DNA of 64,000 nucleotides from Candidatus Heimdallarchaeota archaeon (GCA_016840095.1 JAEOSZ010000095.1:1-64000); one strand, 5' to 3'; shown: positions 7,223 to 20,583, numbered from the stretch's first letter. Program-made: numbers and translations. The notes: generated by a model from the letters alone, not told the origin.

Positions 7223-7325
7223 GTGATTCTAGATTTATTGATAAAATCAAGTTCGAAAAAGTTTAAAAATGCGGATGATTTCCGAAACCTAATAAGAATA
7301 GCCTAATTAATCGGTGATTTCATTC

Positions 7326-8807
7326 ATGAAAAAAAGAACTATCATACCTTTGGTACTATTAACTCTAATGTTTAGTATGAGTTTAACAACAATTACTAAA
7401 AGTCAACCAAACGATTTTCAAGACTCGCTCCCAAAAATATCTGCGACATTACCTGTATTCCAAGGAACAGATGGCAACGCTACTTTGGTTTATGCACAGA
7501 ATATTCCCCAACGTCGTGGAGCAATTTATACAACTTTATTGTATAATAATGTAACAATATGGTATTCATATGCAGGAGGAGATAACTCATCAGCTCCGCT
7601 ATTATTCGGTGATGATGGTTTAGGAAATCTTGATTGGGATATTGGAGAATTGATGACTTATGATGATGAGAGAACTACTTTAGAGAGTGATGGTTCTGCT
7701 TATTATAATTATACATTTTTTGTTCAATCAAATTTCATTAAATTCGTTGTAAGATATGGATATTATGAAAATGAATACAAAGTCCCCCATTTAATAACAA
7801 TAGGACCATATATATTCTCGGAAAGCTATCCTATTACTTTTACACAACTCACTGATATTGAATTCAATGTAACAATGGATGATTTTAATATAACTGAATA
7901 CGGTTTAAGGTATCGGGAAGTAACTCCAGATCACGATTCTGAGTTTCAAAATGTGACAATTCCTTTAGTTGCTAATGGCTTAACAAGAACCAGTTATAAT
8001 GCATCATTTGCACATCTGTTTGAAGCTGGAACACAAATTGAAGTAAGAAGTTTCATGGTTCATTTTGATAATATGACACTAATAGATAGGATTCTGGAAG
8101 AGTGTACAGCCCATTTAGTAGCAATTGTTGATGCTTCTCCTCAATTATCTATAACTGCAGATTCATTTGTAAATGATCTAAATTTTAGCTTATTATATTC
8201 TGCTTCAGCTCCTTTTTCAAACATAACATCAGTAGATATTGACTGGGATGACTTATCAGGAATACAAACAATAGTAAATGATTCTTTTGAAGTGGTTTAT
8301 CATCTCTATGATAGCACTGGAGAGTACAATATCTCCATAACAGCTTATTCTGACATTTTATCTGTAACTAAAAACTTCTTAGTCTTAATTGAACAAGAAG
8401 CTCCTACTGGAATCATCAAAGTATTGGTTGATGGTAATTTAGTTCAACCATCCATTGGAGAATTAGTTCCTATTGAAGTTGATATTAAAAGTGCGACTTT
8501 TCAAGTTTCTGCAAACGATACTGGAGGAAGTGGTGTTTGGAAAATTACTGTAGAAACAGACGAAGGAAACTTAGCCACTCTAGAAGGTGATAATGGTGAG
8601 ATTACTTTGTTGTTCTTAGAATATGGAGAACATGATATCTTAATGACTGTTTATGATAATTCTGAAAACACATACACATTTACATTCTCAGTAGATTTAA
8701 TACCAGTTAGTATGAGAACTGATAACCCAGTACCTTTCCCATTTGGTATAACTACTATAGTTGGTTTAGTTGCAATAGCTGCAATTTACTTAAAAAAGAA
8801 GAAATAA
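7326..8807 (+). CDS. Secreted/cell-surface protein with PKD/Ig-like domains and C-terminal TM anchor
   Basis: Signal peptide MKKRTIIPLVLL; PKD-like IDWDD...YHLYDSTGEYNISITA; many N-x-S/T sequons; ends PVPFPFG-TM-KKKK. ATG 7326 preferred over GTG 7314. Confidence 0.75.
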   Translation: MKKRTIIPLVLLTLMFSMSLTTITKSQPNDFQDSLPKISATLPVFQGTDGNATLVYAQNIPQRRGAIYTTLLYNNVTIWYSYAGGDNSSAPLLFGDDGLGNLDWDIGELMTYDDERTTLESDGSAYYNYTFFVQSNFIKFVVRYGYYENEYKVPHLITIGPYIFSESYPITFTQLTDIEFNVTMDDFNITEYGLRYREVTPDHDSEFQNVTIPLVANGLTRTSYNASFAHLFEAGTQIEVRSFMVHFDNMTLIDRILEECTAHLVAIVDASPQLSITADSFVNDLNFSLLYSASAPFSNITSVDIDWDDLSGIQTIVNDSFEVVYHLYDSTGEYNISITAYSDILSVTKNFLVLIEQEAPTGIIKVLVDGNLVQPSIGELVPIEVDIKSATFQVSANDTGGSGVWKITVETDEGNLATLEGDNGEITLLFLEYGEHDILMTVYDNSENTYTFTFSVDLIPVSMRTDNPVPFPFGITTIVGLVAIAAIYLKKKK

Positions 8808-9338: not shown

Positions 9339-10232
9339 TTAGCTTTCCCACAATTCTAGAATCTTAAATATTAATCCAACTCCAAAATTCAATGCTGCTT
9401 TGTTGAATAAAGTATGTCTAAATTCAACGACATCTACATATTGGGTTTTTGGTAACACAATTTGAAGTATTTCGACTACTTGATGTGGTGTTAACCCAAA
9501 GGGCTCCATTGTTGCATGTGTAGGAACATAAGCTTGATCAAATGCATCAGAATCCACACTAACATATATTCTATCAAATTTAGAAACAAATTCTGTGACT
9601 ATTTTTAGTATCTCTTTTTTATTTGAGTGAACTTCTTGAGCTGGAATATGAATTATTTCAGTTTCATCTTGAATTTTATTGTGCTCATCTATTGTTTGAG
9701 TATATGCATGCCCCCCTATGAACAACATTTGGTTTTTATTTAGTTGAAGTTTTTCTTTAAGATTAGCAAAAACAGTTCCATGAGATTGAAAAATTCCAGG
9801 AGGATATTCATCAGCAAGATCTGCATGAGCATCAAACCAAATTAAAGCTGTCTTTTCATCCCATGGAGCTTTTGAAAGAGCATCGAAGGTTATGCTGTGA
9901 TCTCCACCTAAAACTAGTAGTTTGCAGTTCTTCTTTATAGCACTATTCCAGATCTCTTGGATTTTTTCTTTTTCTTTAACTGGGTTGTAATCACCAATAT
10001 CATAATAATTTGTGTTGTTTTGAGATATGTTAAAGGTTGTTGAAATCCCACTAAACTCTAAAGATTTCTTCCTTAAGGCTTTAGGAGCTTTTCTCGAACC
10101 TCTTTTATTTGCCTTGATTCTTTCGTATGGTAATCCAAATAGAATAAGAGTGTTATTTTCCTCAAAACTATTTAAAGAGTCATAAGATTTCTTGAAGAAT
10201 CCTAAGAATGTCCTTTTCATTTTCTTCTTCAA
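9339..10232 (-). CDS. Arginase/agmatinase (ureohydrolase) family
   Basis: GGDHSIT, DAHAD, SHG, SVDSDAFD, EPFG. Confidence 0.88.
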   Translation of the reverse strand: MKKKMKRTFLGFFKKSYDSLNSFEENNTLILFGLPYERIKANKRGSRKAPKALRKKSLEFSGISTTFNISQNNTNYYDIGDYNPVKEKEKIQEIWNSAIKKNCKLLVLGGDHSITFDALSKAPWDEKTALIWFDAHADLADEYPPGIFQSHGTVFANLKEKLQLNKNQMLFIGGHAYTQTIDEHNKIQDETEIIHIPAQEVHSNKKEILKIVTEFVSKFDRIYVSVDSDAFDQAYVPTHATMEPFGLTPHQVVEILQIVLPKTQYVDVVEFRHTLFNKAALNFGVGLIFKILELWES

Positions 10233-10263: not shown

Positions 10264-12894
10264 TCACTGTTCCTTAAGATAATAGTCTGGAGAAGTTACA
10301 AATCTGCTATCATCATCTGCATCTCCAACTTCAATATCTGTAATAATCTCATCCATAATCTCTTCATCACTTATATCTGCAAGAATCTTACGTTTATCAA
10401 CAGAGATAATTCTACTCAATTCAATAGTTTTAGGCTTGAATTTCTCCATGGTTTCTTCCATTTGAATAAGATTCTTAATTTTCCCAATGAGATTCATAAA
10501 GGTCATTACAATATCTGGTCTAAGAGCAACTTGAGGGGCTATACTTAGTTGTTTACCAATAGAAATTGCCAAATTATCAATGAAATTCTGATCTTTTTCA
10601 AATAATGAAGCTGGATATTCACTAATAAATGAAGCAATTAGAAGTAGATCAATTGAAGTCCAAAGATAAAGGAATGGTTTTTCTGTTAACTGTAAATTGT
10701 AAACAACTCCTATCTCAGTTCCTTTAACATTTTCAACTACTTTCCCTTCTAAATCAAATACATCATTTAATTCAAAAGATGGTGATCCATAACTTACTTG
10801 AATCATATTTCCTATTTGTCTAACATTGCCCATTGAAAATAAGAGGAATCTAGAATTTTCAACTTTTTCAGGAAGGAATCCAGTATTTTTCTCTATAAGA
10901 ATTCTTTTCAACATATCAATATCGTCTATTTCATCTTCAGTTCTTGAATACTCCTCTGCAAAATCCTCTAGTACTTTTTTCTTCTTCTCTGAAAGAGATA
11001 ATTTTGTTCTTGAAATAAGTGGTTGGTTGTGAACATCATGAAGGAAATCATAAATTATACCAAAAAATTCACTTGAAGCTTTTTTCTTCTCTACAACAAG
11101 GAAGTAGCCCTTCATTGGATGGTAAATAACAGAGTGGGCTCTTCCTAAAGGCTTACCAAAAACATTTCTAGCAGCTATATTCTCCTCTTCTGTAATTCTA
11201 TCATTTATCAAATTACTTTCAGCTGGATTGAAATATGGAAGAACATCTCCATTTTGGATGATATCTTGGCTCTTAATTCTTATTTCTCTTGCAGTTTTAT
11301 CCAGTTTTTCCAAAGATACAAAAAGGTAATTGTGAGGTTGGAGTATAATTTCTATAATTTCTTCAGTTAGTGGTATATCTTTAATTTTGCAATATTCAAC
11401 GATTGCTTCAGGAATCAGATATGTGAAAGGTAATTGTGGAATATTTCTCGGAAGTTCATTGAGTAAGAATTCTTTCTTTTCTCTTTCATTACTTAATTCA
11501 GGTTCTTTACTTATTGGTAAAACAATGTTATCATAGATTCTTCTGACCATAGAAAGAGATAATTCTTGTTGTTGTCGAATTATAATTCCAAACTTTTCAT
11601 TTAATTGTCCGGGTCCTACGACAAAACCCACCAAATCTTTTTGTTCATCTACAACAGGTTTTCCGGAATATCTCCAAAGAGCTTTCAGTTCTGATAATAG
11701 TTGATAATCTATCTCTCGACTTGCAGCACTAGTTGCAACAGTTAGTTGATTTCTGAATTGAAGAGCACTGATTATTTCACTATATTTTTGAATGCGATTT
11801 TCTGTATCAAGTGTTAGATCCTTGAAATAAGGTGTTATAATCTCTTGAAATTGGAGATGTTCTCCATAGATAACATCCAACGCATCAAGATCTTTGGCAT
11901 AATCATTAATATCTTCATCTAAGAGTTCTTCATAGATTTCGAGTTGTTTGATTTTTCTAGCTAACTCATCACTTTGAATAGAGGGAATTCTTCCTTCATT
12001 GTTCTCCATAAATATTCTGAACTTTTCCCTTTCCTGTTGAATAATTACTTTCCATTTTAAGGTATCTTGAGCTGCTTTTCTAAGGATTGGTCTGTGTCTT
12101 AGCACTCTTTCGTTTATATCATAGATTATACCTTTCAATTCCTTTTTATCAGTAACAAGTCTTCTCAATCTGTTGATATTTTCACTCAATTCGTTGTTAA
12201 ATAAGAGAAAATTATTGTGAGTGTTTTTATATAAATGATCTTGGCTGACAGAAAATAGCAGCTCTGATAATTTGTAAAAGTGCTGAAAGATTTTATGCTG
12301 TTTGGCTTCAACTTCATTCTTCTTTCCCATGTATTCTTGATCATCGATTTTGCTGGACATATAATCTTGTTCGAGATCCATTTCTTCTTCGAAAGTCTTA
12401 GTTGCTGCTTTAATAGCCATATTCATTACATAACGAATCTTTAATTCTTCTATTTCAATAGGAGGAATTTCTTCTAACTCAATTATAGGCAGTTCTATTT
12501 CCTCAGATATTTCAGGTTTAGGAGGAAGAACAACTACTTCTTTAGCTTCTTCTTTTACCTCTTCTTTTACCTCTTCTTTAATTTCCTCTACTTCTTTTTC
12601 TACCATAATAGGAGATGTATCAGACTCCAATTCAATAGGAGTAGTTAACTCTCCTTTTTGAATCTGATGAAAATCTAGTTCAACTTCAGGTAATTTCTGT
12701 TTTGTTTCTTCCAGTTCTTTTTCTTCAATCTCAGCATCAATAGTTTTAGGAAGATTAGCTAGAAGCTCTTTATACTTATTTTTCAAAGTTTGATAGGTTC
12801 TTCTATCAATTGAACCTCGTATGTAACGTAAATCTAAATCTCGAATAAAACGGAGAATTCGTCTTCGTTTAACGCTTACCTCATCGTCTAACAT
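10264..12894 (-). CDS. Large coiled-coil protein with CdvA/SHOCT-like helical motifs and three PRC-barrel-like repeats
   Basis: LDLRYIRGSIDRRTY and LEQDYMSSKIDDQEY motifs; long coiled coil; YSGKPVVDEQKDLVGFV, AARNVFGKPLGRA, LEGKVVENVKGTEIGVV. Confidence 0.55.
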   Translation of the reverse strand: MLDDEVSVKRRRILRFIRDLDLRYIRGSIDRRTYQTLKNKYKELLANLPKTIDAEIEEKELEETKQKLPEVELDFHQIQKGELTTPIELESDTSPIMVEKEVEEIKEEVKEEVKEEAKEVVVLPPKPEISEEIELPIIELEEIPPIEIEELKIRYVMNMAIKAATKTFEEEMDLEQDYMSSKIDDQEYMGKKNEVEAKQHKIFQHFYKLSELLFSVSQDHLYKNTHNNFLLFNNELSENINRLRRLVTDKKELKGIIYDINERVLRHRPILRKAAQDTLKWKVIIQQEREKFRIFMENNEGRIPSIQSDELARKIKQLEIYEELLDEDINDYAKDLDALDVIYGEHLQFQEIITPYFKDLTLDTENRIQKYSEIISALQFRNQLTVATSAASREIDYQLLSELKALWRYSGKPVVDEQKDLVGFVVGPGQLNEKFGIIIRQQQELSLSMVRRIYDNIVLPISKEPELSNEREKKEFLLNELPRNIPQLPFTYLIPEAIVEYCKIKDIPLTEEIIEIILQPHNYLFVSLEKLDKTAREIRIKSQDIIQNGDVLPYFNPAESNLINDRITEEENIAARNVFGKPLGRAHSVIYHPMKGYFLVVEKKKASSEFFGIIYDFLHDVHNQPLISRTKLSLSEKKKKVLEDFAEEYSRTEDEIDDIDMLKRILIEKNTGFLPEKVENSRFLLFSMGNVRQIGNMIQVSYGSPSFELNDVFDLEGKVVENVKGTEIGVVYNLQLTEKPFLYLWTSIDLLLIASFISEYPASLFEKDQNFIDNLAISIGKQLSIAPQVALRPDIVMTFMNLIGKIKNLIQMEETMEKFKPKTIELSRIISVDKRKILADISDEEIMDEIITDIEVGDADDDSRFVTSPDYYLKEQ

Positions 12895-13047
12895 TATTAA
12901 TAGAAAATAATATGGTACCTATTCAAATATGTTCCTAAATTGCCCATTTTAAAAAATATATAAGGTACTAGAAAAATGGGATATTACCCAAAGAAAAACG
13001 TTTAATAGATTATTGGGGAAAATACATTAAGAAATGGTGAAATTATC

Positions 13048-13407
13048 ATGAGTTTTCAAGACGATGTTGCAGTAGCAGCTCAAGAAGGTACCGTTGGAGT
13101 AGTATGGTTGATTGGGGATGATTTGAAATGTTATTATCAATATGGCGATTGGGCTGTAGACCCTACTATACCGTTTAATGCATGGAAAAATCAGACTCAA
13201 AATGTTGACTTTGGTGGGGGATTAAAATTTACAGTTATTACAATGACACCAGAAAGATTGTGCACTACAAATCTGGGTGGTCAAGGACATATAATGGTTG
13301 CTCGTTGTCCACACTGGGCAGGATGTGTTATTACTTGGTCTCCATCTACAGTAGAGAATAGAATTGCTTATGCGACTGCAGCTAAACTTGCTGCTAAAGT
13401 AGCCTGA
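13048..13407 (+). CDS. Asgard-type profilin
   Basis: 119 aa. Q.GDW, GLKFTVITMTPERLCTTNLGGQGHIMVARCP resembles the Asgard profilin pattern G.KY.I...T.ER...TN..G.GH.....P. GGTGA Shine-Dalgarno upstream. Confidence 0.8.
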   Translation: MSFQDDVAVAAQEGTVGVVWLIGDDLKCYYQYGDWAVDPTIPFNAWKNQTQNVDFGGGLKFTVITMTPERLCTTNLGGQGHIMVARCPHWAGCVITWSPSTVENRIAYATAAKLAAKVA

Positions 13408-13428
13408 TCTAGATTTTTTGGTGTTTTT

Positions 13429-13731
13429 TTGATTTCACATCCCTCTATTGAAATTAGGAACGATGAAATCTTTTTATCAATTAGAGCTCACCCAAACTCG
13501 TCAACCAACAAGATAGAAGTTACAGAATTTTCAATAGATATTTATGTAAAAGAATCTGCAAACAAAGGGAAGGCAAACAAATCTATTCTAGCACTAATAT
13601 CTAAAACTTATAAGATTCCATCTACTTCACTCTCAATTTCTCGAGGATTAAAATCAAGAAATAAAATTATAGTTTTAAAGAATCAAGAAAAAGATTTGTT
13701 TTTAGAGAAAGTATTTGGTAAGGACATTTAG
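13429..13731 (+). CDS. DUF167/YggU family protein
   Basis: HPNS...I, V.E.ANKGKAN, GLKSRNK. Confidence 0.85.
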   Translation: MISHPSIEIRNDEIFLSIRAHPNSSTNKIEVTEFSIDIYVKESANKGKANKSILALISKTYKIPSTSLSISRGLKSRNKIIVLKNQEKDLFLEKVFGKDI

Positions 13732-14294
13732 AGTTTCATTTTTTCAAATGCTCTAATAAGTTCATTTCTTTCGATAAATCTATTATGAACGCTACTACTC
13801 AAATTCATTAAAGTTGCTATACTTGTTTCTACAGTATCTAGCATCATTTCTTCCAGCTTTACTTTAACATCTAGTATTTTATCCTTAAGTTCCTCAGCAT
13901 TATCAAGTATGTCTATTTCTAGTAGGTAAAGAATTGAAAGATCAATTCCATGTTCTCCTTCTACGTCCTTTACATCAAAAAATGTACTGTATTTATAATC
14001 CGTCTTTGAAGCTTCTTTTCTCATATCTGAGATGGTTTTCATAACAATTCCTGCTGGACCCCAGCTTGTTAACAGTTGTGAATGAATTAGAAGTTCATGA
14101 ACTTGGCTCATCATATCGCCTGTGTTCCTCATTATGGTAAGTAATCTTGTTCTGAATGCAATATCAGAATCTCTTCTATGCTCTAAATCTTTGTACCCAT
14201 GGTAGTTTTCAATGTTAGAATTAAGAATTTTGAGTGCCTCACTAGGTCTTTTTGAAACTTCTTTTTCAGTCATATCCTTTTTCTTACCAAACAT
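13728..14294 (-). CDS. Conserved helical hypothetical protein
   Basis: I..Y.GY...E.RR.SD..FR N-terminal pattern, Y..FFD, helical bundle. Confidence 0.6.
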   Translation of the reverse strand: MFGKKKDMTEKEVSKRPSEALKILNSNIENYHGYKDLEHRRDSDIAFRTRLLTIMRNTGDMMSQVHELLIHSQLLTSWGPAGIVMKTISDMRKEASKTDYKYSTFFDVKDVEGEHGIDLSILYLLEIDILDNAEELKDKILDVKVKLEEMMLDTVETSIATLMNLSSSVHNRFIERNELIRAFEKMKL

Positions 14295-14316
14295 ATGCTT
14301 TCACAATTAAATTATT

Positions 14317-16089
14317 TTATTGATTTAAATAGATTGTGCGTATTTCGTCGTTTGTAGTAGCTTGCTCAGGTGCTTTATCGTCAACTATTTTACCTGTAAA
14401 TCTTGGAAATCGCAGTGCTAATCCTTCTAAATCACTTTCCATTAAGCCTCTTGAACAAGTATGTAGTTGACTCCTGGTAATTTCATCTCCAGTTACTTCA
14501 ATAACTATCTTAGGATTAAACCAAATACTGCTCTCAATATCGCTTTGAAACTCTTTTGGTTTATCTCTCTCGAAAGGTTTGAGTTCCTTAAAGAAGAAAT
14601 CAAGATCTTCATCTGAAAATCCTGTACCTATTTTAGTAAAGGTTTGATATACACCTTCAATCTCATCATAACAACCTAAGAGAAAAGCACCATATTTTCC
14701 GGCTCTTTTTCCCTTACCATATTCTGCCCCCATAATAACTAAATCAAAGGAATCAGAAAGTTGGGCATCATATCCAGCTTTGTACTTTACCCAATTCCAA
14801 CCTCTTGCACCAGCTTGATAAACAGAATCTTTTCCAACACTTTTACCCATTATCCCCTCACAACTGTCTTTAATTGCTTGATGAAAGAAATCATCAATTT
14901 CATCTGCGTTTTCTGCAATTGTTTGATGTGAAAATTTTATTTCCTTAGATTCTTCGATTATTTCTTTTAGATTTTCTCTTCTTTCAAGATAAGGAGAATC
15001 TAATTTGGATTTGGAGTCACTATATAGAACATCAAAAAGATAAACCCTAACGGGGACTTCAGCTATCTTCTGATCAATATCATGCTTTCTTTTTCTTTGA
15101 GATACATGTTGAAAAGGTAATATGGATTCTTTATCATGATCAAAAGCAACAATTTCTCCTTCAATAATAAATTCGTCATCTAACGAAGAATCATTGATAA
15201 ACTCAATCACATCAGGAAATTGATTAGTTATGTTTTCGGTACTTCTAGAGAATAATTTTACATCCTTATTCTTCTTATGGATTTGAACTCTTAACCCATC
15301 ATACTTGTACTCTAGGGCGCATGTTCCTTTAAATCTTTCAAGTAATTCTTCTGAACTAGAAACCCTTTGAGCAAGCATAACCTTAATTGGACTAAACAAT
15401 TTTACTTCAACTTGCTTAACTGCTTCAAGACCTTTAGCAAATAAGGTGGTTGAAACATATTCAATATCTGAGCATCTATTATAAGCTCTTTCCAGAAACT
15501 CTTTATTTTCTCTGTTACCAGTTTTAGCTTTTGATAGTGCTTCAAGTAATAACTGTGCAGCTACACCTGTTCGCAAGTTTCCAGCTATTAGTCTAGAAAT
15601 ATATCTTGCTTCCAAAGATGTTACCTTTGATAGTAATCCAGACAGGAATCTTATTTTCTTATCTGATGAACCTTCTCCAGTGGTTTTAGCTATATTATCA
15701 AGTATTCCCCAAATTTCTTGAACTTCATACTGCTCTATTTCTTGTTGATTCGTAAAAGCAAGCAAAGTTGACTGTGTTTTATTTTCTAAAAGCTTATGTG
15801 CAGCCTTTCCTAAGTCTCCTGTCTCATCTAATAAGTTTTGAACAGATTTTTCACTTTTACCTGTTGCTAATGCTAAAGCCTTGGTAGCCATTTTCTCAGC
15901 TAACATTAGTTCAATTCCTACAAAATCAGGGTACAGTTTACCAAGAGTTAAAAGGGAGATTTTTCCTATTTCCTTTTCATTTGCCTTTGCTAGAGTTTCA
16001 GCTAAGATGTCAACCATTTCTAGCTTCTTCTGAGTATTCTCTAATCTAAAATAGCACTGACACAAATCCTTAAACTTCACCTTAATCAA
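14317..16089 (-). CDS. lig: ATP-dependent DNA ligase (archaeal/eukaryotic type I-like)
   Basis: EYKYDGLRVQIH, EGEIV, FDVLY, EGIMGK, WVKYK, DLVIMGA..GKGKR, LRFPRF. Confidence 0.97.
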   Translation of the reverse strand: MIKVKFKDLCQCYFRLENTQKKLEMVDILAETLAKANEKEIGKISLLTLGKLYPDFVGIELMLAEKMATKALALATGKSEKSVQNLLDETGDLGKAAHKLLENKTQSTLLAFTNQQEIEQYEVQEIWGILDNIAKTTGEGSSDKKIRFLSGLLSKVTSLEARYISRLIAGNLRTGVAAQLLLEALSKAKTGNRENKEFLERAYNRCSDIEYVSTTLFAKGLEAVKQVEVKLFSPIKVMLAQRVSSSEELLERFKGTCALEYKYDGLRVQIHKKNKDVKLFSRSTENITNQFPDVIEFINDSSLDDEFIIEGEIVAFDHDKESILPFQHVSQRKRKHDIDQKIAEVPVRVYLFDVLYSDSKSKLDSPYLERRENLKEIIEESKEIKFSHQTIAENADEIDDFFHQAIKDSCEGIMGKSVGKDSVYQAGARGWNWVKYKAGYDAQLSDSFDLVIMGAEYGKGKRAGKYGAFLLGCYDEIEGVYQTFTKIGTGFSDEDLDFFFKELKPFERDKPKEFQSDIESSIWFNPKIVIEVTGDEITRSQLHTCSRGLMESDLEGLALRFPRFTGKIVDDKAPEQATTNDEIRTIYLNQ

Positions 16090-16095
16090 ACCTTA

Positions 16096-17502
16096 TTATC
16101 TTTTCTTACCTCGTTGTTCCTTCATTTCAAGAACTATTTCACTTATAAGATGAATGAGATTTGCACTTAACACATCGAGACTATTTTTAAGCTCTCGCAC
16201 TGCTTGAGTTAGACTCTCTATTTGCTGTGATTGAATAGCTGGTTGAGCCACTGGTTGAACATCAGGTTCTACCTGTAATTCCTGGTCAAAAAGCATGATA
16301 TCCTTTTCAAATTGATCCATTTCTGGAGTTCTAGGTTCAGGTATTGATGTTATATCACCTTTAACGGCACCCTTTACAGATTCTTTACGTTTTTGTTTCT
16401 TCTTCTTATCTCGGTCTTCTTTCTCACGAATTCTTTCTAAATATGGCAGTATTTGTGCATAATCAATTCCTTCTCTTCTGGCCATATCAGTCAGAAGGAT
16501 ATCTCTATATCCAGGGTCTTCAATTTTAAGTTCATCAATATCTTTTTCTAATTCTTGAATAATAGCAATTGATTCATAGACATTTTTTACAGGAGCTTTA
16601 ATCTCTTCTTCCTTTTCAACACTCTTAGTTGCTCTGACTTCGTCTTTAAGAGTCTTCATGGCTTTCATAACTTCTGCTTTTACTGTATCAGTTTCACCTT
16701 TGTTCAAAGCTTCCTTAACCATATCAATTTTACTTACAGATTCGAAAGGTTCTTCTCTAGCTTGTTCTTTTACTTGAATTGTTTCTTCTATCTCTTCATC
16801 CAACTCTTCTTCTTGCTTAGTAAACATCGGAGGTGCAGCTATATGCTGAAACAGACTCTTAGCAAATTTAGCATTATCTCGCAAATCTATACCTGACTTT
16901 GAATCAGACAACATTGAGTAAGAACCACAAGCAAAAACTGTTCCTAGACCATACGAGGTTATCCCCATGATTGCTGAACTTGGGGGATCACTAGTGCTCT
17001 TAGTTCTTGCTAGCTCTTCTACTCCTTCTTGAAGATGTAGAGAACAGCTTGAAACAATTGTTAATTCTTTAATACTTTTGGTAATTGGGTGGTCGTAAAA
17101 TTTTGATACAATTACATTGCTTTCCAATTCTAAATCAAAGTTTTGATAATCAAAGATTTGATTTGCTAAAATCTCTATATTGAAATGTTTGAGTAGAGTA
17201 TTCAAATTTGTGTTTAATCCTTTATCTCCACCTGCATTAGTAAAAATTGCTAATGATCCTCCCTCATCAACAAATCTTAGCAAGGACTTAACCTCATGCC
17301 CCATAATCTTTGATCCATCTGGGCATAAGAATACAAATATATCATACTTTGATATGTTAGTGTATTTTATTGGATAGGAGTCATGTTTGCTAATTTCATG
17401 ACCTTCTTCTTCAAGAATACTTGCTAGTTTCTGAAAATTCTCAAAAATCTTTCCTCTCTCTTTTTGAGTTTCATCGAATAATATCTTCATATGTTCACCC
17501 AA
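16096..17502 (-). CDS. IFT52/GIFT (GldG-like, DUF4350) domain protein with acidic coiled-coil C-terminus
   Basis: KILFDETQKE, FVFLCP..K....EVKSLLRFVDEGGSL....AGGD....TNLN.LL..F.I, HPITK, G.G.VFACGS. No signal peptide. Confidence 0.7.
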   Translation of the reverse strand: MGEHMKILFDETQKERGKIFENFQKLASILEEEGHEISKHDSYPIKYTNISKYDIFVFLCPDGSKIMGHEVKSLLRFVDEGGSLAIFTNAGGDKGLNTNLNTLLKHFNIEILANQIFDYQNFDLELESNVIVSKFYDHPITKSIKELTIVSSCSLHLQEGVEELARTKSTSDPPSSAIMGITSYGLGTVFACGSYSMLSDSKSGIDLRDNAKFAKSLFQHIAAPPMFTKQEEELDEEIEETIQVKEQAREEPFESVSKIDMVKEALNKGETDTVKAEVMKAMKTLKDEVRATKSVEKEEEIKAPVKNVYESIAIIQELEKDIDELKIEDPGYRDILLTDMARREGIDYAQILPYLERIREKEDRDKKKKQKRKESVKGAVKGDITSIPEPRTPEMDQFEKDIMLFDQELQVEPDVQPVAQPAIQSQQIESLTQAVRELKNSLDVLSANLIHLISEIVLEMKEQRGKKR

Positions 17503-17682
17503 TTTGTGTATGTATTAGTCAATATTTTATTAAATTAAACTATAATTAACTATAATTAATATAAATAAAAGGTTGCTGTTGTTATTTCTAAGCTAAAAAA
17601 CCTTCTTTTTCTGTGAAATTTTCCATCTTATGCAGTAAAGAATAAAAAGACTTGAAGCAGATATTATTTATCCGGTGATTAA

Positions 17683-18537
17683 TTGTCTAGTATAGATTTT
17701 GGAAAATTACAAGAAATGGCTTCTGCTAGATTAGATATAATAATACTTCATTCTCAAAAAGGTGGTCCTGGTAAGACAACTCTATCCTGCAACATTGCAC
17801 ATGAATTAGCTAAGAGAGGAAATAAAACCGTTTTAATTGATTTGGATATAGCACAACCTACAATTCAACATATTTTCAGAATACCTGATAAGAAGATTAA
17901 GCATACTATAAATGACGTTCTTATGGGCAAGAAAAAGGTTAGTGAAGAAGTACTTCTTGAGACAAATAATCAAAACCTACAACTAATTGTTGCAAAAGAG
18001 AATGTTGAATATGGTGAAGGATTGCTTTCACTTCTTGAAGATATTCAACAATATTCTTTCTTCGCCCTTCACGAAATGACTAAGTTTTTGCAGAGGATGG
18101 GGTACAGATATGTTGTATATGATTTAGCTCCAGGTTACAGAATGGAATCAGTTAATGCTGCAGCTATAGCAGATGCTCGAATCTTCGTAATTAGACCATC
18201 AACATTCAGCTTTGAAGGAGCGAAGCAAATGCTGAGAGATATTTACAAGAAACTAGAAATAAGATCTCTTAGTTTTTTTGTGTTTAACCAGCTACCTCCT
18301 AAGTTAAAAGCAGAAAATCAAAAATTGCTTGAAGATTGGAAAGAAGATTTGATAAACCTCTACAAACCTGATAAAATTACCTTTCTTGATTTCTTACCAA
18401 TATCCTTTGATGTAATGGAACAAGGTATTAGAGGAGAGTATATCTTTCCTGATGACTCAGTTCTTTACGAAAAACTAACTCAGATAGTAGATAAAGTAAT
18501 TCAAGATATTGATGAAATGAAGAAAAGCAAAGAATAA
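17683..18537 (+). CDS. MinD/ParA-family P-loop ATPase
   Basis: Deviant Walker A SQKGGPGKTT, LIDLD, YDLAPG, NQ motif. Confidence 0.9.
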   Translation: MSSIDFGKLQEMASARLDIIILHSQKGGPGKTTLSCNIAHELAKRGNKTVLIDLDIAQPTIQHIFRIPDKKIKHTINDVLMGKKKVSEEVLLETNNQNLQLIVAKENVEYGEGLLSLLEDIQQYSFFALHEMTKFLQRMGYRYVVYDLAPGYRMESVNAAAIADARIFVIRPSTFSFEGAKQMLRDIYKKLEIRSLSFFVFNQLPPKLKAENQKLLEDWKEDLINLYKPDKITFLDFLPISFDVMEQGIRGEYIFPDDSVLYEKLTQIVDKVIQDIDEMKKSKE

Positions 18538-18609
18538 ACCTAGCTTTTTCCTCAATTTTCATGAAAATTATATGAAATTTTATATTAGCTATGGTAAACT
18601 GTAGTACTA

Positions 18610-19593
18610 ATGAGCCTAGTTAAGAAATTTCAATGTCCTCATTGTAATGCTCCAATGGATGTGAATCCAGAGGATGCAATTTTCAATTGTGTTTCTTGCG
18701 GTCAAGCATATTTAGCTGATGGTTCTAAATTTGATAATCATTACATCTTAAGAAATACGCTTAATCAGAAGAAAATACATGATATTGTAAAGGAGTTTAT
18801 TAGGAAAAAAGGATTCATGAGGGGGATTAAAGGTTATAAGATTACTAACATTATCCCAACTTTGATGCCTTTTTGGGTTGTAACTTCTGATGCGTATACT
18901 CATTTTGTGGGTTACCTCAGATACACTGAAACAAGAACTAGAACAGTAGGAACTGGAAAAAATAGACGAACAGTAACAGAACATGTTACGGTATACCGAC
19001 CAATAGATAGAGAAATAAAAGAAAAGAGAGCAGATGTCTTACTTGGTAGGAGGGGAAGTTCAATTTTCGGTTATGATCGTGTAAAAGATATTGTAAGAGC
19101 AGAATTTACAAATGCTGTAGAATTTAATCATGACCAACTACAAGCAGATGAGAAAGAATTCATTTATCTTTCATCAGAAATCACAATAGATGCAGCAAAT
19201 CAGTTAGGCAAAACTTTGGTCTTTGATACTCATAGAGCTCAAGCTGAAAAAGCTTGTACAAAAGTGTTTGATTGTGCTACTCAACTAACTTTTGAAGGGA
19301 CTTACTTTGTACATGCTCCAGTCTGGCAAATCGAATATGAATTCAAAGGAGAAACTTACAGAATGGCAATTCTAGGAAGTAGTGGCAGAATAATAATTGG
19401 AGAGATTCCTGTTACAACAAGTTTCAGAATTATGTTCTTGTCATTAACTATATTACTTCTAGGAGGAGCTGGTGTAGCAAGCTACTTCTTTAGAGATTTA
19501 GTATATGTTCCAATAATTGCTGGAATAGTTGCAGCTGTGATAGGATTCTTCACGCTTAAGAATACCTTCAAACCAAAATCGGTGGTGGACTAA
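18610..19593 (+). CDS. Zn-ribbon protein with two C-terminal TM helices (YdjG-like)
   Basis: CPHC..CVSC; PFW; HAPVW..EY...GE.Y...I.G.SG....GE.P; TM hairpin. Confidence 0.7.
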   Translation: MSLVKKFQCPHCNAPMDVNPEDAIFNCVSCGQAYLADGSKFDNHYILRNTLNQKKIHDIVKEFIRKKGFMRGIKGYKITNIIPTLMPFWVVTSDAYTHFVGYLRYTETRTRTVGTGKNRRTVTEHVTVYRPIDREIKEKRADVLLGRRGSSIFGYDRVKDIVRAEFTNAVEFNHDQLQADEKEFIYLSSEITIDAANQLGKTLVFDTHRAQAEKACTKVFDCATQLTFEGTYFVHAPVWQIEYEFKGETYRMAILGSSGRIIIGEIPVTTSFRIMFLSLTILLLGGAGVASYFFRDLVYVPIIAGIVAAVIGFFTLKNTFKPKSVVD

Positions 19594-20583
19594 ATGAGTG
19601 TAAGATCAATAATGTGCCCAAATTGTGCTGCTCCTTTAGAACTAGAAGCAACACAATCACATGTTACTTGTCCATATTGTTCAGTAACTAGTGAACTTGC
19701 AAAAGTATCAGAGCTAATAGAACACTATATGTTGCCTGTTGACTACAATGTTGAACAAATAAGAACAGAATTAGTAGGAGATATACTTAAACATCCTGGT
19801 GTTCCTGAAGATCTTCATAAATCTTTAAAGGTAACAAAGTTAGACTTGAAATTCTATCCTTATTACATTGTAACTGTTCATCTGAGAACAGAATACAAGG
19901 GAAATGGAGAATATGCAACTTTTAGTAATAGATACAAGTCAGGATATAGACATATTAGCATCCATTTGAAACCTGAGCAAGGAGTTTTTGATGATACTAG
20001 AGAATTCATTATTTATGCAGCTGAAGAAATAAATAATGAGCTGCTCAACTTTGAGATATCGACAAGGGGTAAGAGATACTTCCAAGCACTTGAAGCAGAA
20101 AAAGTAAAAGCTGATGTGGTTCCAAGCATATTTGACTTAGATCAAGCAAAAAATGAAGCAATTGATCAAATGAGAGAGATTCATAAGGGATTGATGCTAA
20201 AAGAATTAGCTCAAATCCTTGAGGTTAGAGATCAGCCAGATGTAGAAAGTGTTTATCTACTTCATATCCCATTCTACATAATCGAATTCGAAGCAGCTGG
20301 AAAGAAGCATAACGCAATTTTAGATGGAGCAACAGGAAGAACAGTAGTTACTGATGTTCCAAGAGAAACATCATATTGGATGCAAGTTGGAATACTAACA
20401 ACACTATTTGCTGGGATCGGAATTGCTGGAATTTTCTTTGCTATACAGAGTACACTTTTTAATTTCCAATACTTCGGTATTTTTGGTGCAATTGCAGGTC
20501 TAATATTAGCTGGAAGAACTTTACAACTTGGGTTAAAATCTAGATATCGTGAAACTCAGAGATCACGGAAGAGAAGAAGATGA
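19594..20583 (+). CDS. Zn-ribbon protein with two C-terminal TM helices (paralogue of preceding gene)
   Basis: CPNC..CPYC; YPYY; HIPFY..EF...GK......DGATG......P; TM hairpin; basic tail. Starts immediately after the previous stop. Confidence 0.7.
   Translation: MSVRSIMCPNCAAPLELEATQSHVTCPYCSVTSELAKVSELIEHYMLPVDYNVEQIRTELVGDILKHPGVPEDLHKSLKVTKLDLKFYPYYIVTVHLRTEYKGNGEYATFSNRYKSGYRHISIHLKPEQGVFDDTREFIIYAAEEINNELLNFEISTRGKRYFQALEAEKVKADVVPSIFDLDQAKNEAIDQMREIHKGLMLKELAQILEVRDQPDVESVYLLHIPFYIIEFEAAGKKHNAILDGATGRTVVTDVPRETSYWMQVGILTTLFAGIGIAGIFFAIQSTLFNFQYFGIFGAIAGLILAGRTLQLGLKSRYRETQRSRKRRR

Follow-up and report, generated by a model that had tools for sequence, protein, structure and literature searches.

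A conserved profilin neighbourhood in Heimdallarchaeaceae and its possible origin from two older gene sets

In Bacillus subtilis, the soluble SPFH protein YdjI is anchored by two membrane proteins, YdjG, which bears a zinc (Zn) ribbon, and YdjH; YdjI carries a C-terminal Zn finger and recruits PspA (PMC8581546, PMC9239133, PMC13713150). This PspA-YdjGHI complex, which acts in membrane stress and has been renamed SamGHI, is one of the described systems to which the locus considered here bears a likeness. The others are the Asgard profilins of the Loki, Odin and Heimdall lineages (PDB entries 5yed, 5zza, 5zzb and 7pbh), CdvA (9s9g; PF18822) together with the PRC-barrel division proteins CdpB1/CdpB2 (8qzo), and IFT52 with the bacterial GldG-type ABC_transp_aux proteins. 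Apart from profilin and gelsolin-type proteins, few regulators of Asgard actin are known. The locus spans positions 10264-20583 of a 64,000-nucleotide (nt) stretch of DNA (hereafter, the window) from a Candidatus (Ca.) Heimdallarchaeota archaeon (GCA_016840095.1, JAEOSZ010000095.1:1-64000). Its nine genes encode a large scaffold-type protein (A_876), profilin, a DUF167/YggU-family protein, an unannotated conserved protein (D_188), an ATP-dependent DNA ligase (lig), a GIFT-domain protein, a ParA/MinD-superfamily ATPase and two Zn-ribbon membrane proteins (ZnTM1 and ZnTM2).

An earlier note on this DNA, made from the sequence alone, had proposed the nine genes as a single cytoskeleton and division module. 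Comparison with other Asgard genomes establishes a real and partly new conserved neighbourhood, which is a useful lead rather than a demonstrated system. The account favoured here, to which we would give an even chance, is that two old, separately conserved gene sets have become adjacent in the Heimdallarchaeaceae, together with one lineage-specific insert, and with a coupling between them that is unproven. Set 1 consists of profilin with DUF167, the ligase, the GIFT protein and the A_876 scaffold, and Set 2 of the ZnTM pair with an SPFH + Zn-ribbon protein; D_188 is the sole gene with conserved links to both.

Conservation within and beyond the family

Asgard families, genera, genomes, loci and contigs are numbered below with the prefixes f, g, G, L and C, respectively, and G000 denotes the genome under study. 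The window is part of contig C95 of this 3.4-Mb, 89%-complete genome (~32% G+C). Its host family is the Heimdallarchaeaceae, to which Ca. Heimdallarchaeum aukensis and Ca. H. endolithica, both with closed genomes, also belong, and its GIFT protein is 89% identical to the counterpart in Heimdallarchaeota AB_125. The nine open reading frames (ORFs), the boundaries of which agree exactly with those drawn in the earlier note, occupy both strands and form at least four transcription units.

Inside the family, 18 loci around A_876 and 25 more around the GIFT gene were compared. The order A_876-profilin-DUF167-D_188-lig-GIFT-MinD-ZnTM1-ZnTM2 is kept across these loci with some exceptions, including genus g5, in which the block also occurs without lig. 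The flanking genes for agmatinase, RidA, a HAD protein and the A-type ATPase are equally well kept, and within-family synteny is therefore uninformative. Outside the family, profiles of the window's own genes were run against 40 profilin loci drawn from about 20 further Asgard families, and the first 20 of these loci were also subjected to all-against-all clustering. Among the 40 loci, the genes recurring near profilin were DUF167 and lig (12 each), relatives of A_876 (5), D_188 (4) and GIFT (4), and all other gene families recovered by clustering were common to close kin only.

Beyond the family, the flanks are scrambled, yet the block genes stay together despite inversions. For example, GIFT-lig-D_188 is followed by a reversed profilin gene in both the 'Hodarchaeota' genome DZ1B.339 and Ca. 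Wukongarchaeum yapensis, and D_188-lig lies beside GIFT in Ca. Sifarchaeum; the GIFT-lig-D_188 group recurs in the Heimdall, 'Hod', Wukong and Sif lineages. Linkage of profilin to the block was not found at the profilin loci examined in the multi-profilin family f13, nor at those of f4, f9, f18, f23, f26 and f28. Co-location beyond chance is evident from gene subsets that are adjacent in many Asgard families with unrelated flanks. Two such subsets persist outside the Heimdallarchaeaceae, while the complete set is confined to this one family.

Profilin and its conserved neighbours

The profilin gene (13048-13407, + strand) encodes a 119-residue, Asgard-type protein, an identity borne out by its similarity to solved Asgard profilins. 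Specifically, a PDB sequence search matched residues 13-115 to the Odin profilin-actin complex 5zza (E 3.2e-10), with additional matches to 5yed (E 0.0019), 5zzb and 7pbh. An alignment with Odin profilin covers the whole length of the protein and includes the GGQGH motif, and there is no notable difference from known Asgard profilins; the novelty resides in its conserved gene neighbours. A single copy was found in G000, and matches were obtained in 219 of 251 Asgard genomes. A PF00235 search of the whole genome returned nothing, but the control was equally silent and the result is hence uninformative.

Starting 21 nt 3' of profilin, the next gene (13429-13731, + strand) encodes a YggU/DUF167 protein, as predicted, with a PF02594 match clearly above the cut-off (E 6e-17; 61.9 versus 30.9 bits). 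The two genes adjoin in families f1, f3, f10, f16, f19, f21, f22 and f27, and the literature searched contains no mention of a profilin-DUF167 gene context in Asgard archaea. In family f10, which corresponds to Thorarchaeota by the NCBI names of its D_188 homologues, two tandem profilin genes lie beside a divergent DUF167 gene (L119:9831-10692; L120:9486-10407).

A_876 (10264-12894, - strand; 876 residues) is separated from profilin by a divergent intergenic region of 153 nt (12895-13047), in which a TTCAAATATGTT.CTAAA block and a TATTTAATA box are conserved and GGTGA precedes the profilin start. Like the second divergent region of the locus (17503-17682), which had also been noted before, it is present with motifs conserved inside the genus. 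In genomes G005 and G007, genes for YhhN and YdjM membrane proteins are inserted between A_876 and profilin (L004:5687-7073; L005:5685-7072), and G005 holds additional genes in this gap.

By sequence, A_876 has no match in Pfam (E <= 0.01), where CdvA (PF18822) was among the families missed, nor in NCBIfam or the PDB (E <= 1). Its AF2 model (pLDDT 78) predicts helices at the N-terminus, an acidic linker that is disordered (~84-131), a stretch of long helices (145-378) and a C-terminal region of alpha/beta repeats with PRC-barrel-like units (413-845). The best VIA match is the CdvA filament of S. islandicus, 9s9g, aligned with model residues 217-343 at Z 10.8 and a root-mean-square deviation (rmsd) of 2.0 A over 115 residues, although a Z near 11 for long helices can reflect a common arrangement. 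PRC barrels of the RimM type align with residues 710-845 at Z 8-9 (2f1l, Z 8.7 over 714-845), and the top Foldseek match is CdpB1/CdpB2, 8qzo (E 0.037, prob 0.95). A broad VIA search with A_876 was swamped by helical bundles and yielded no usable result.

The label 'CdvA/PRC-like' given to A_876 in the earlier note therefore finds moderate support in predicted structure and none in sequence; as a reading of a model, it is a fair structural description and not a statement of family membership. As in CdvA and CdpB1/CdpB2, PRC-barrel-like units appear to be paired with a helical hairpin. However, CdvA begins with a PRC barrel followed by helices, whereas the model of A_876 places its helices ahead of several barrel copies, and the protein is four times longer. 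Because it combines this reversed domain order with the lack of a sequence match, A_876 is not regarded as a member of the CdvA family. Furthermore, CdvA keeps company with ESCRT-III and Vps4, but none of the nine locus proteins has a Pfam match to Snf7 (ESCRT-III, CdvB) or Vps4 (CdvC), and the conserved neighbour of A_876 is instead profilin.

Profile searches located relatives of A_876 in families f1, f5, f6, f8, f14 and f21. They abut profilin in f1, f6 (4/4), f8 (2/2), f14 and f21, but not in f5, where the A_876-like gene abuts DUF167 and D_188 is 4.5 kb away. In f5 and f6, large profilin-adjacent genes that had been suspected as further relatives proved to encode a subtilase and a restriction methylase. 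An agmatinase gene (9339-10232, - strand) adjoins A_876 in the Heimdallarchaeaceae and, likewise, an A_876-like gene in the distant family f21 (L046:6048-7022), and may therefore belong to the old block.

The remaining genes of this side of the locus form the GIFT-lig-D_188 operon on the - strand, with only 6 nt between the end of the GIFT gene (16096-17502) and the downstream lig (14317-16089), and with D_188 (13728-14294) as the last gene. The ligase identity stands on strong matches to all three domains expected of a Lig1-type enzyme: N-terminal DNA-binding, adenylation and OB-fold (PF04675, PF01068 and PF04679), with E values of 4e-61, 9e-35 and 2e-20 among the three. As the only PF01068 match in G000, it is the sole ATP-dependent, replicative ligase found there.

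The GIFT protein has an IFT52-like N-terminal domain, a charged linker and a conserved, helical C-terminal part. Its N-terminal ~110-220 residues match PF23355 (40.8 bits versus a cut-off of 27.2) and solved IFT52 chains (5fms, E 4e-4), while neither Pfam nor the PDB gave a match past the GIFT domain (residues 7-113), and the IFT46-binding C-terminus of IFT52 was not found. The earlier description 'IFT52-like' accordingly holds for the GIFT domain alone. In contrast to IFT52, this cytoplasmic protein has a C-terminus that is conserved but unrelated, and its gene shares an operon with a DNA ligase gene. GIFT adjoins lig in f1, f3, f8, f21, Wukongarchaeum and Sifarchaeum, and no mention of GIFT domains in Asgard archaea was encountered in the literature searched. 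Two related observations concern other loci: a second GIFT-domain ORF occurs in the genome (G000:C122:105280-105519, in a 730-residue frame, 28.3 bits), and, in an Asgard metagenome-assembled genome (L099:2888-5449), a GIFT gene is followed by one for an 854-residue coiled-coil protein whose similarity to profilin is weak (E 4e-5).

The Zn-ribbon membrane pair, its SPFH partner and D_188

ZnTM1 (18610-19593, + strand) and ZnTM2 (19594-20583, + strand), the latter starting directly 3' of the ZnTM1 stop, are paralogues of ~20% identity in alignments. As the earlier note had it, both are Zn-ribbon membrane proteins, with four conserved cysteines (C9, C12, C27 and C30); the membrane hairpin lies near the C-terminus, where a model of pLDDT 89 puts it at residues 270-319. 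Sequence searches of Pfam, NCBIfam and the PDB gave neither protein a usable match. The AF2 model of ZnTM1 (pLDDT 89, pTM 0.78) predicts an N-terminal Zn ribbon, two modules each made of a helix plus a long beta-sheet, and the hairpin. No solved relative was detected for this model: all Foldseek matches had E > 0.04, and the best VIA matches were small PepSY/NTF2-like units at Z <= 5.6. Among the predicted models of the Atlas, it matched archaeal Zn-ribbon clusters and a 'TFIIB-type zinc ribbon' cluster of Bacillota that carries PF08271 (TM 0.60).

The tandem pair is present phylum-wide, in 130 of 251 Asgard genomes, and 19 of 20 loci outside the family keep the order ZnTM1-then-ZnTM2; Odin has a single copy (L033) and Freyarchaeia three (L034). 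None of these 20 loci contains profilin, lig, DUF167 or MinD. The recurrent neighbours are instead D_188 and a gene for an SPFH Band_7_1 protein with C-terminal Zn ribbons, which adjoins or lies near the ZnTM pair in f3, f4, f16, f26 and Ca. Heimdallarchaeum. In Odin (L033, G061:C1:1102000-1121999), the single ZnTM gene is also shorter, with genes for the A-type ATPase subunits C and K 5 kb away, a proximity that echoes the one in the window, and a GIFT gene 9 kb away.

D_188 has no sequence match in Pfam or the PDB and no usable one in NCBIfam, and feature searches of the Atlas gave only nameless clusters. It occurs in 148 of 251 Asgard genomes, with homologues outside Asgard in Korarchaeota, WOR-3 and Edwardsbacteria. 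On the side of Set 1, it follows lig in f1, f3, f8, f19, Wukong and Sif. On the side of Set 2, it lies directly 5' of the SPFH + Zn-ribbon gene in six lineages (Odinarchaeia, Freyarchaeia, Jordarchaeia, one further archaeon, Edwardsbacteria and WOR-3), immediately 3' of the ZnTM pair in f16, and ~8 kb from it in Thorarchaeota. The WOR-3 operon has the order D_188-SPFH-ZnTM-ZnTM, its ZnTM homologues being matched at E 4e-14 and 4e-10.

Several of these features recall PspA-YdjGHI. Both arrangements appear to combine a membrane-anchored, cytoplasmic Zn-ribbon protein (YdjG versus ZnTM1/ZnTM2) with a soluble SPFH Band_7_1 partner that has a Zn finger at its C-terminus (YdjI in Bacillus, the SPFH + Zn-ribbon protein in Asgard archaea); in both, a small protein is encoded just 5' (PspA in Bacillus, D_188 here), and the genes cluster as operons in bacteria and in several Asgard lineages. 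From its upstream gene position, D_188 may be an analogue of PspA. There are also differences: a TPM-domain YdjH is missing, with no Pfam match to the TPM family in any of the nine locus proteins, and there are two YdjG-like paralogues instead. In this genome, moreover, D_188 belongs to the ligase operon, and the SPFH protein is encoded on a different contig. PspA itself (PF04012) was found in 0 of 121 Asgard genomes, with no match above the cut-off in G000, by a search whose control was positive in 9 of 14 known genomes.

The ParA/MinD-superfamily ATPase (17683-18537, + strand) precedes the ZnTM pair and is separated from the GIFT gene by a divergent region of 180 nt (17503-17682). At 17673-17682, just 5' of the ATPase start, this region holds TATCCGGTGA, invariant in 8/8 aligned genus members and probably a ribosome-binding site, in addition to further conserved blocks. 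The KGGxGK[ST] motif marks the entire ParA/MinD/Mrp superfamily, not MinD alone. The protein matches AAA_31, CbiA and other Pfam families and has a deviant Walker A (QKGGPGKTT), which places it in the superfamily, but its designation as MinD does not hold, all curated MinD cut-offs being missed by far (TIGR01969, minD_arch, 58.7 versus 201.75 bits; TIGR01968, 58.1 versus 212.9). Nor can it be kept as a member of the block, in which it occurs only in genera g1 and g2. The blocks of Ca. Heimdallarchaeum and g5 are without it, the orthologues of g4 and g5 being located elsewhere in the genome; four paralogues occur in G025. The ATPase is a lineage-specific insertion, added late to the ZnTM operon. 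A 'MinD-like' neighbour in f3 was identified as Mrp/NUBPL (PF10609).

Two neighbouring genes outside the block may be mentioned. A 497-residue protein with a weak match to Filamin repeats (E 4e-4, under the cut-off) is encoded at 7314-8807 (+ strand), and its gene is kept beside the block across the whole family. On contig C77 of G000, the gene adjoining that for the SPFH + Zn-ribbon protein (L039:2255-3538) encodes a 427-residue protein with weak RING-finger and Zn-ribbon matches.

Competing accounts of the locus

The observed gene identities, folds, operon spacing and neighbourhood network suggest how the two sets might operate, and it is from gene neighbourhood that we infer each protein interaction, the membrane-platform role and the coupling of actin to such a platform. 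Set 1 would be centred on profilin, with A_876 and profilin-DUF167 read from their shared divergent region and the GIFT-ligase-D_188 operon converging on these units. Set 2 would form a membrane platform in which ZnTM1 and ZnTM2, as cytoplasmic Zn-ribbon proteins held in the membrane by their hairpins, recruit the soluble SPFH + Zn-finger protein encoded on the other contig, by analogy with YdjG/YdjH. The predicted helical protein D_188 may be recruited along with the SPFH protein, taking the place that PspA has in the Bacillus operon, and the ParA/MinD ATPase would be an addition to the ZnTM operon confined to this genus and a second one.

Several points weigh against the two-set account. Among PDB sequences, neither PspA nor Vipp1 nor ESCRT-III shows a similarity to D_188 that could be detected. 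ZnTM1 and ZnTM2 are missed by PF08271, the domain that YdjG carries. Their Zn ribbon and membrane hairpin agree with YdjG, but the link comes from comparing two predicted models, to which the TM of 0.60 applies. The SPFH + Zn-ribbon gene of G000 lies on contig C77 (21302-21853), outside the locus. Finally, the network of neighbours passes through an essential ligase, so part of it may be stable gene order only, and the related genomes are non-independent samples.

Next in rank, and improbable in our estimate, is an account in which the locus is simply an inherited gene order. An ancestral Asgard arrangement around the essential ligase would have slowly decayed, with no functional tie among the profilin, ligase, GIFT and membrane genes. 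Such an origin would suit a block that contains the sole replicative ligase, is divided between the two strands into four or more transcription units, and varies in membership by lineage, having been lost in f4, f9, f13, f18, f23, f26 and f28. It sits poorly with flanks that are not conserved between families while the block genes re-pair after inversions and moves, and with the pairing of A_876 with DUF167 in f5, where profilin is elsewhere. Furthermore, the D_188-SPFH-ZnTM operon is also bacterial, which common Asgard ancestry leaves unexplained.

Somewhat less probable still, and in our judgement unlikely, is one integrated system, in which A_876 would, like CdvA, polymerise or form a scaffold at the membrane with profilin feeding actin to it, D_188 would tie in the ZnTM/SPFH platform, and GIFT and MinD would provide positioning, the whole connecting the control of actin with the remodelling of membranes. 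The chain of neighbourhoods is indeed connected, through profilin-A_876, profilin-DUF167, A_876-DUF167, profilin-lig, lig-GIFT, lig-D_188, D_188-SPFH, D_188-ZnTM, ZnTM-SPFH and GIFT-ZnTM links. D_188 and the ZnTM pair also largely share their family distribution, and both are missing from f13 (0/54 and 1/54 genomes, respectively). The predicted hairpin of A_876 is CdvA-like at the Z and rmsd given above, although that score is open to a common long-helix arrangement. On the other hand, only one family has the complete set; in f5, D_188 and an A_876-like gene occur without the ZnTM pair, and in f26 the pair occurs without D_188. Profilin is universal, whereas the remaining components are patchily distributed; no cytoskeletal role is known for the ligase or DUF167; and MinD is a recent addition. 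The single module of the earlier note thus survives to the extent that its genes are not random neighbours, but it splits into two older sets of different distribution that are bridged only by D_188, and the presence of the genome's sole replicative DNA ligase in the block also counts against it.

A cell-division locus, with a CdvA-like scaffold and MinD marking the division site, is very improbable: PRC-barrel proteins (CdvA, CdpB1/CdpB2) do function in the division of archaea and head the structural matches of A_876, and a MinD-superfamily ATPase is present, but A_876 has no CdvA Pfam match and a reversed domain order, the ATPase is far under the MinD cut-offs and not a conserved member, and the division role suggested earlier is without basis because the block holds no ESCRT-III, Vps4, FtsZ or SepF gene, none of the nine proteins having a Pfam match to these families.

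The value of the locus lies in well-defined targets rather than in a demonstrated mechanism. Located beside profilin in five families, A_876 is a specific and testable candidate for the role of a missing partner in actin regulation. The D_188-SPFH-ZnTM set seems to be a relative of PspA-YdjGHI that lacks PspA and is widely distributed, in bacteria and archaea alike, and it includes an unannotated family; its characterization would show how SPFH platforms work without PspA. Since the neighbourhood network is connected, there is also room for a real coupling between actin control and a membrane platform. In the form in which a CdvA-like, multi-PRC-barrel scaffold and profilin/actin would be tied through D_188, as a PspA substitute, to an SPFH/YdjG-like platform, such membrane-cytoskeleton coupling is a doubtful prospect, less probable than any account above save cell division. 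If true, it would be an undescribed prokaryotic forerunner of the membrane-actin links of eukaryotes.

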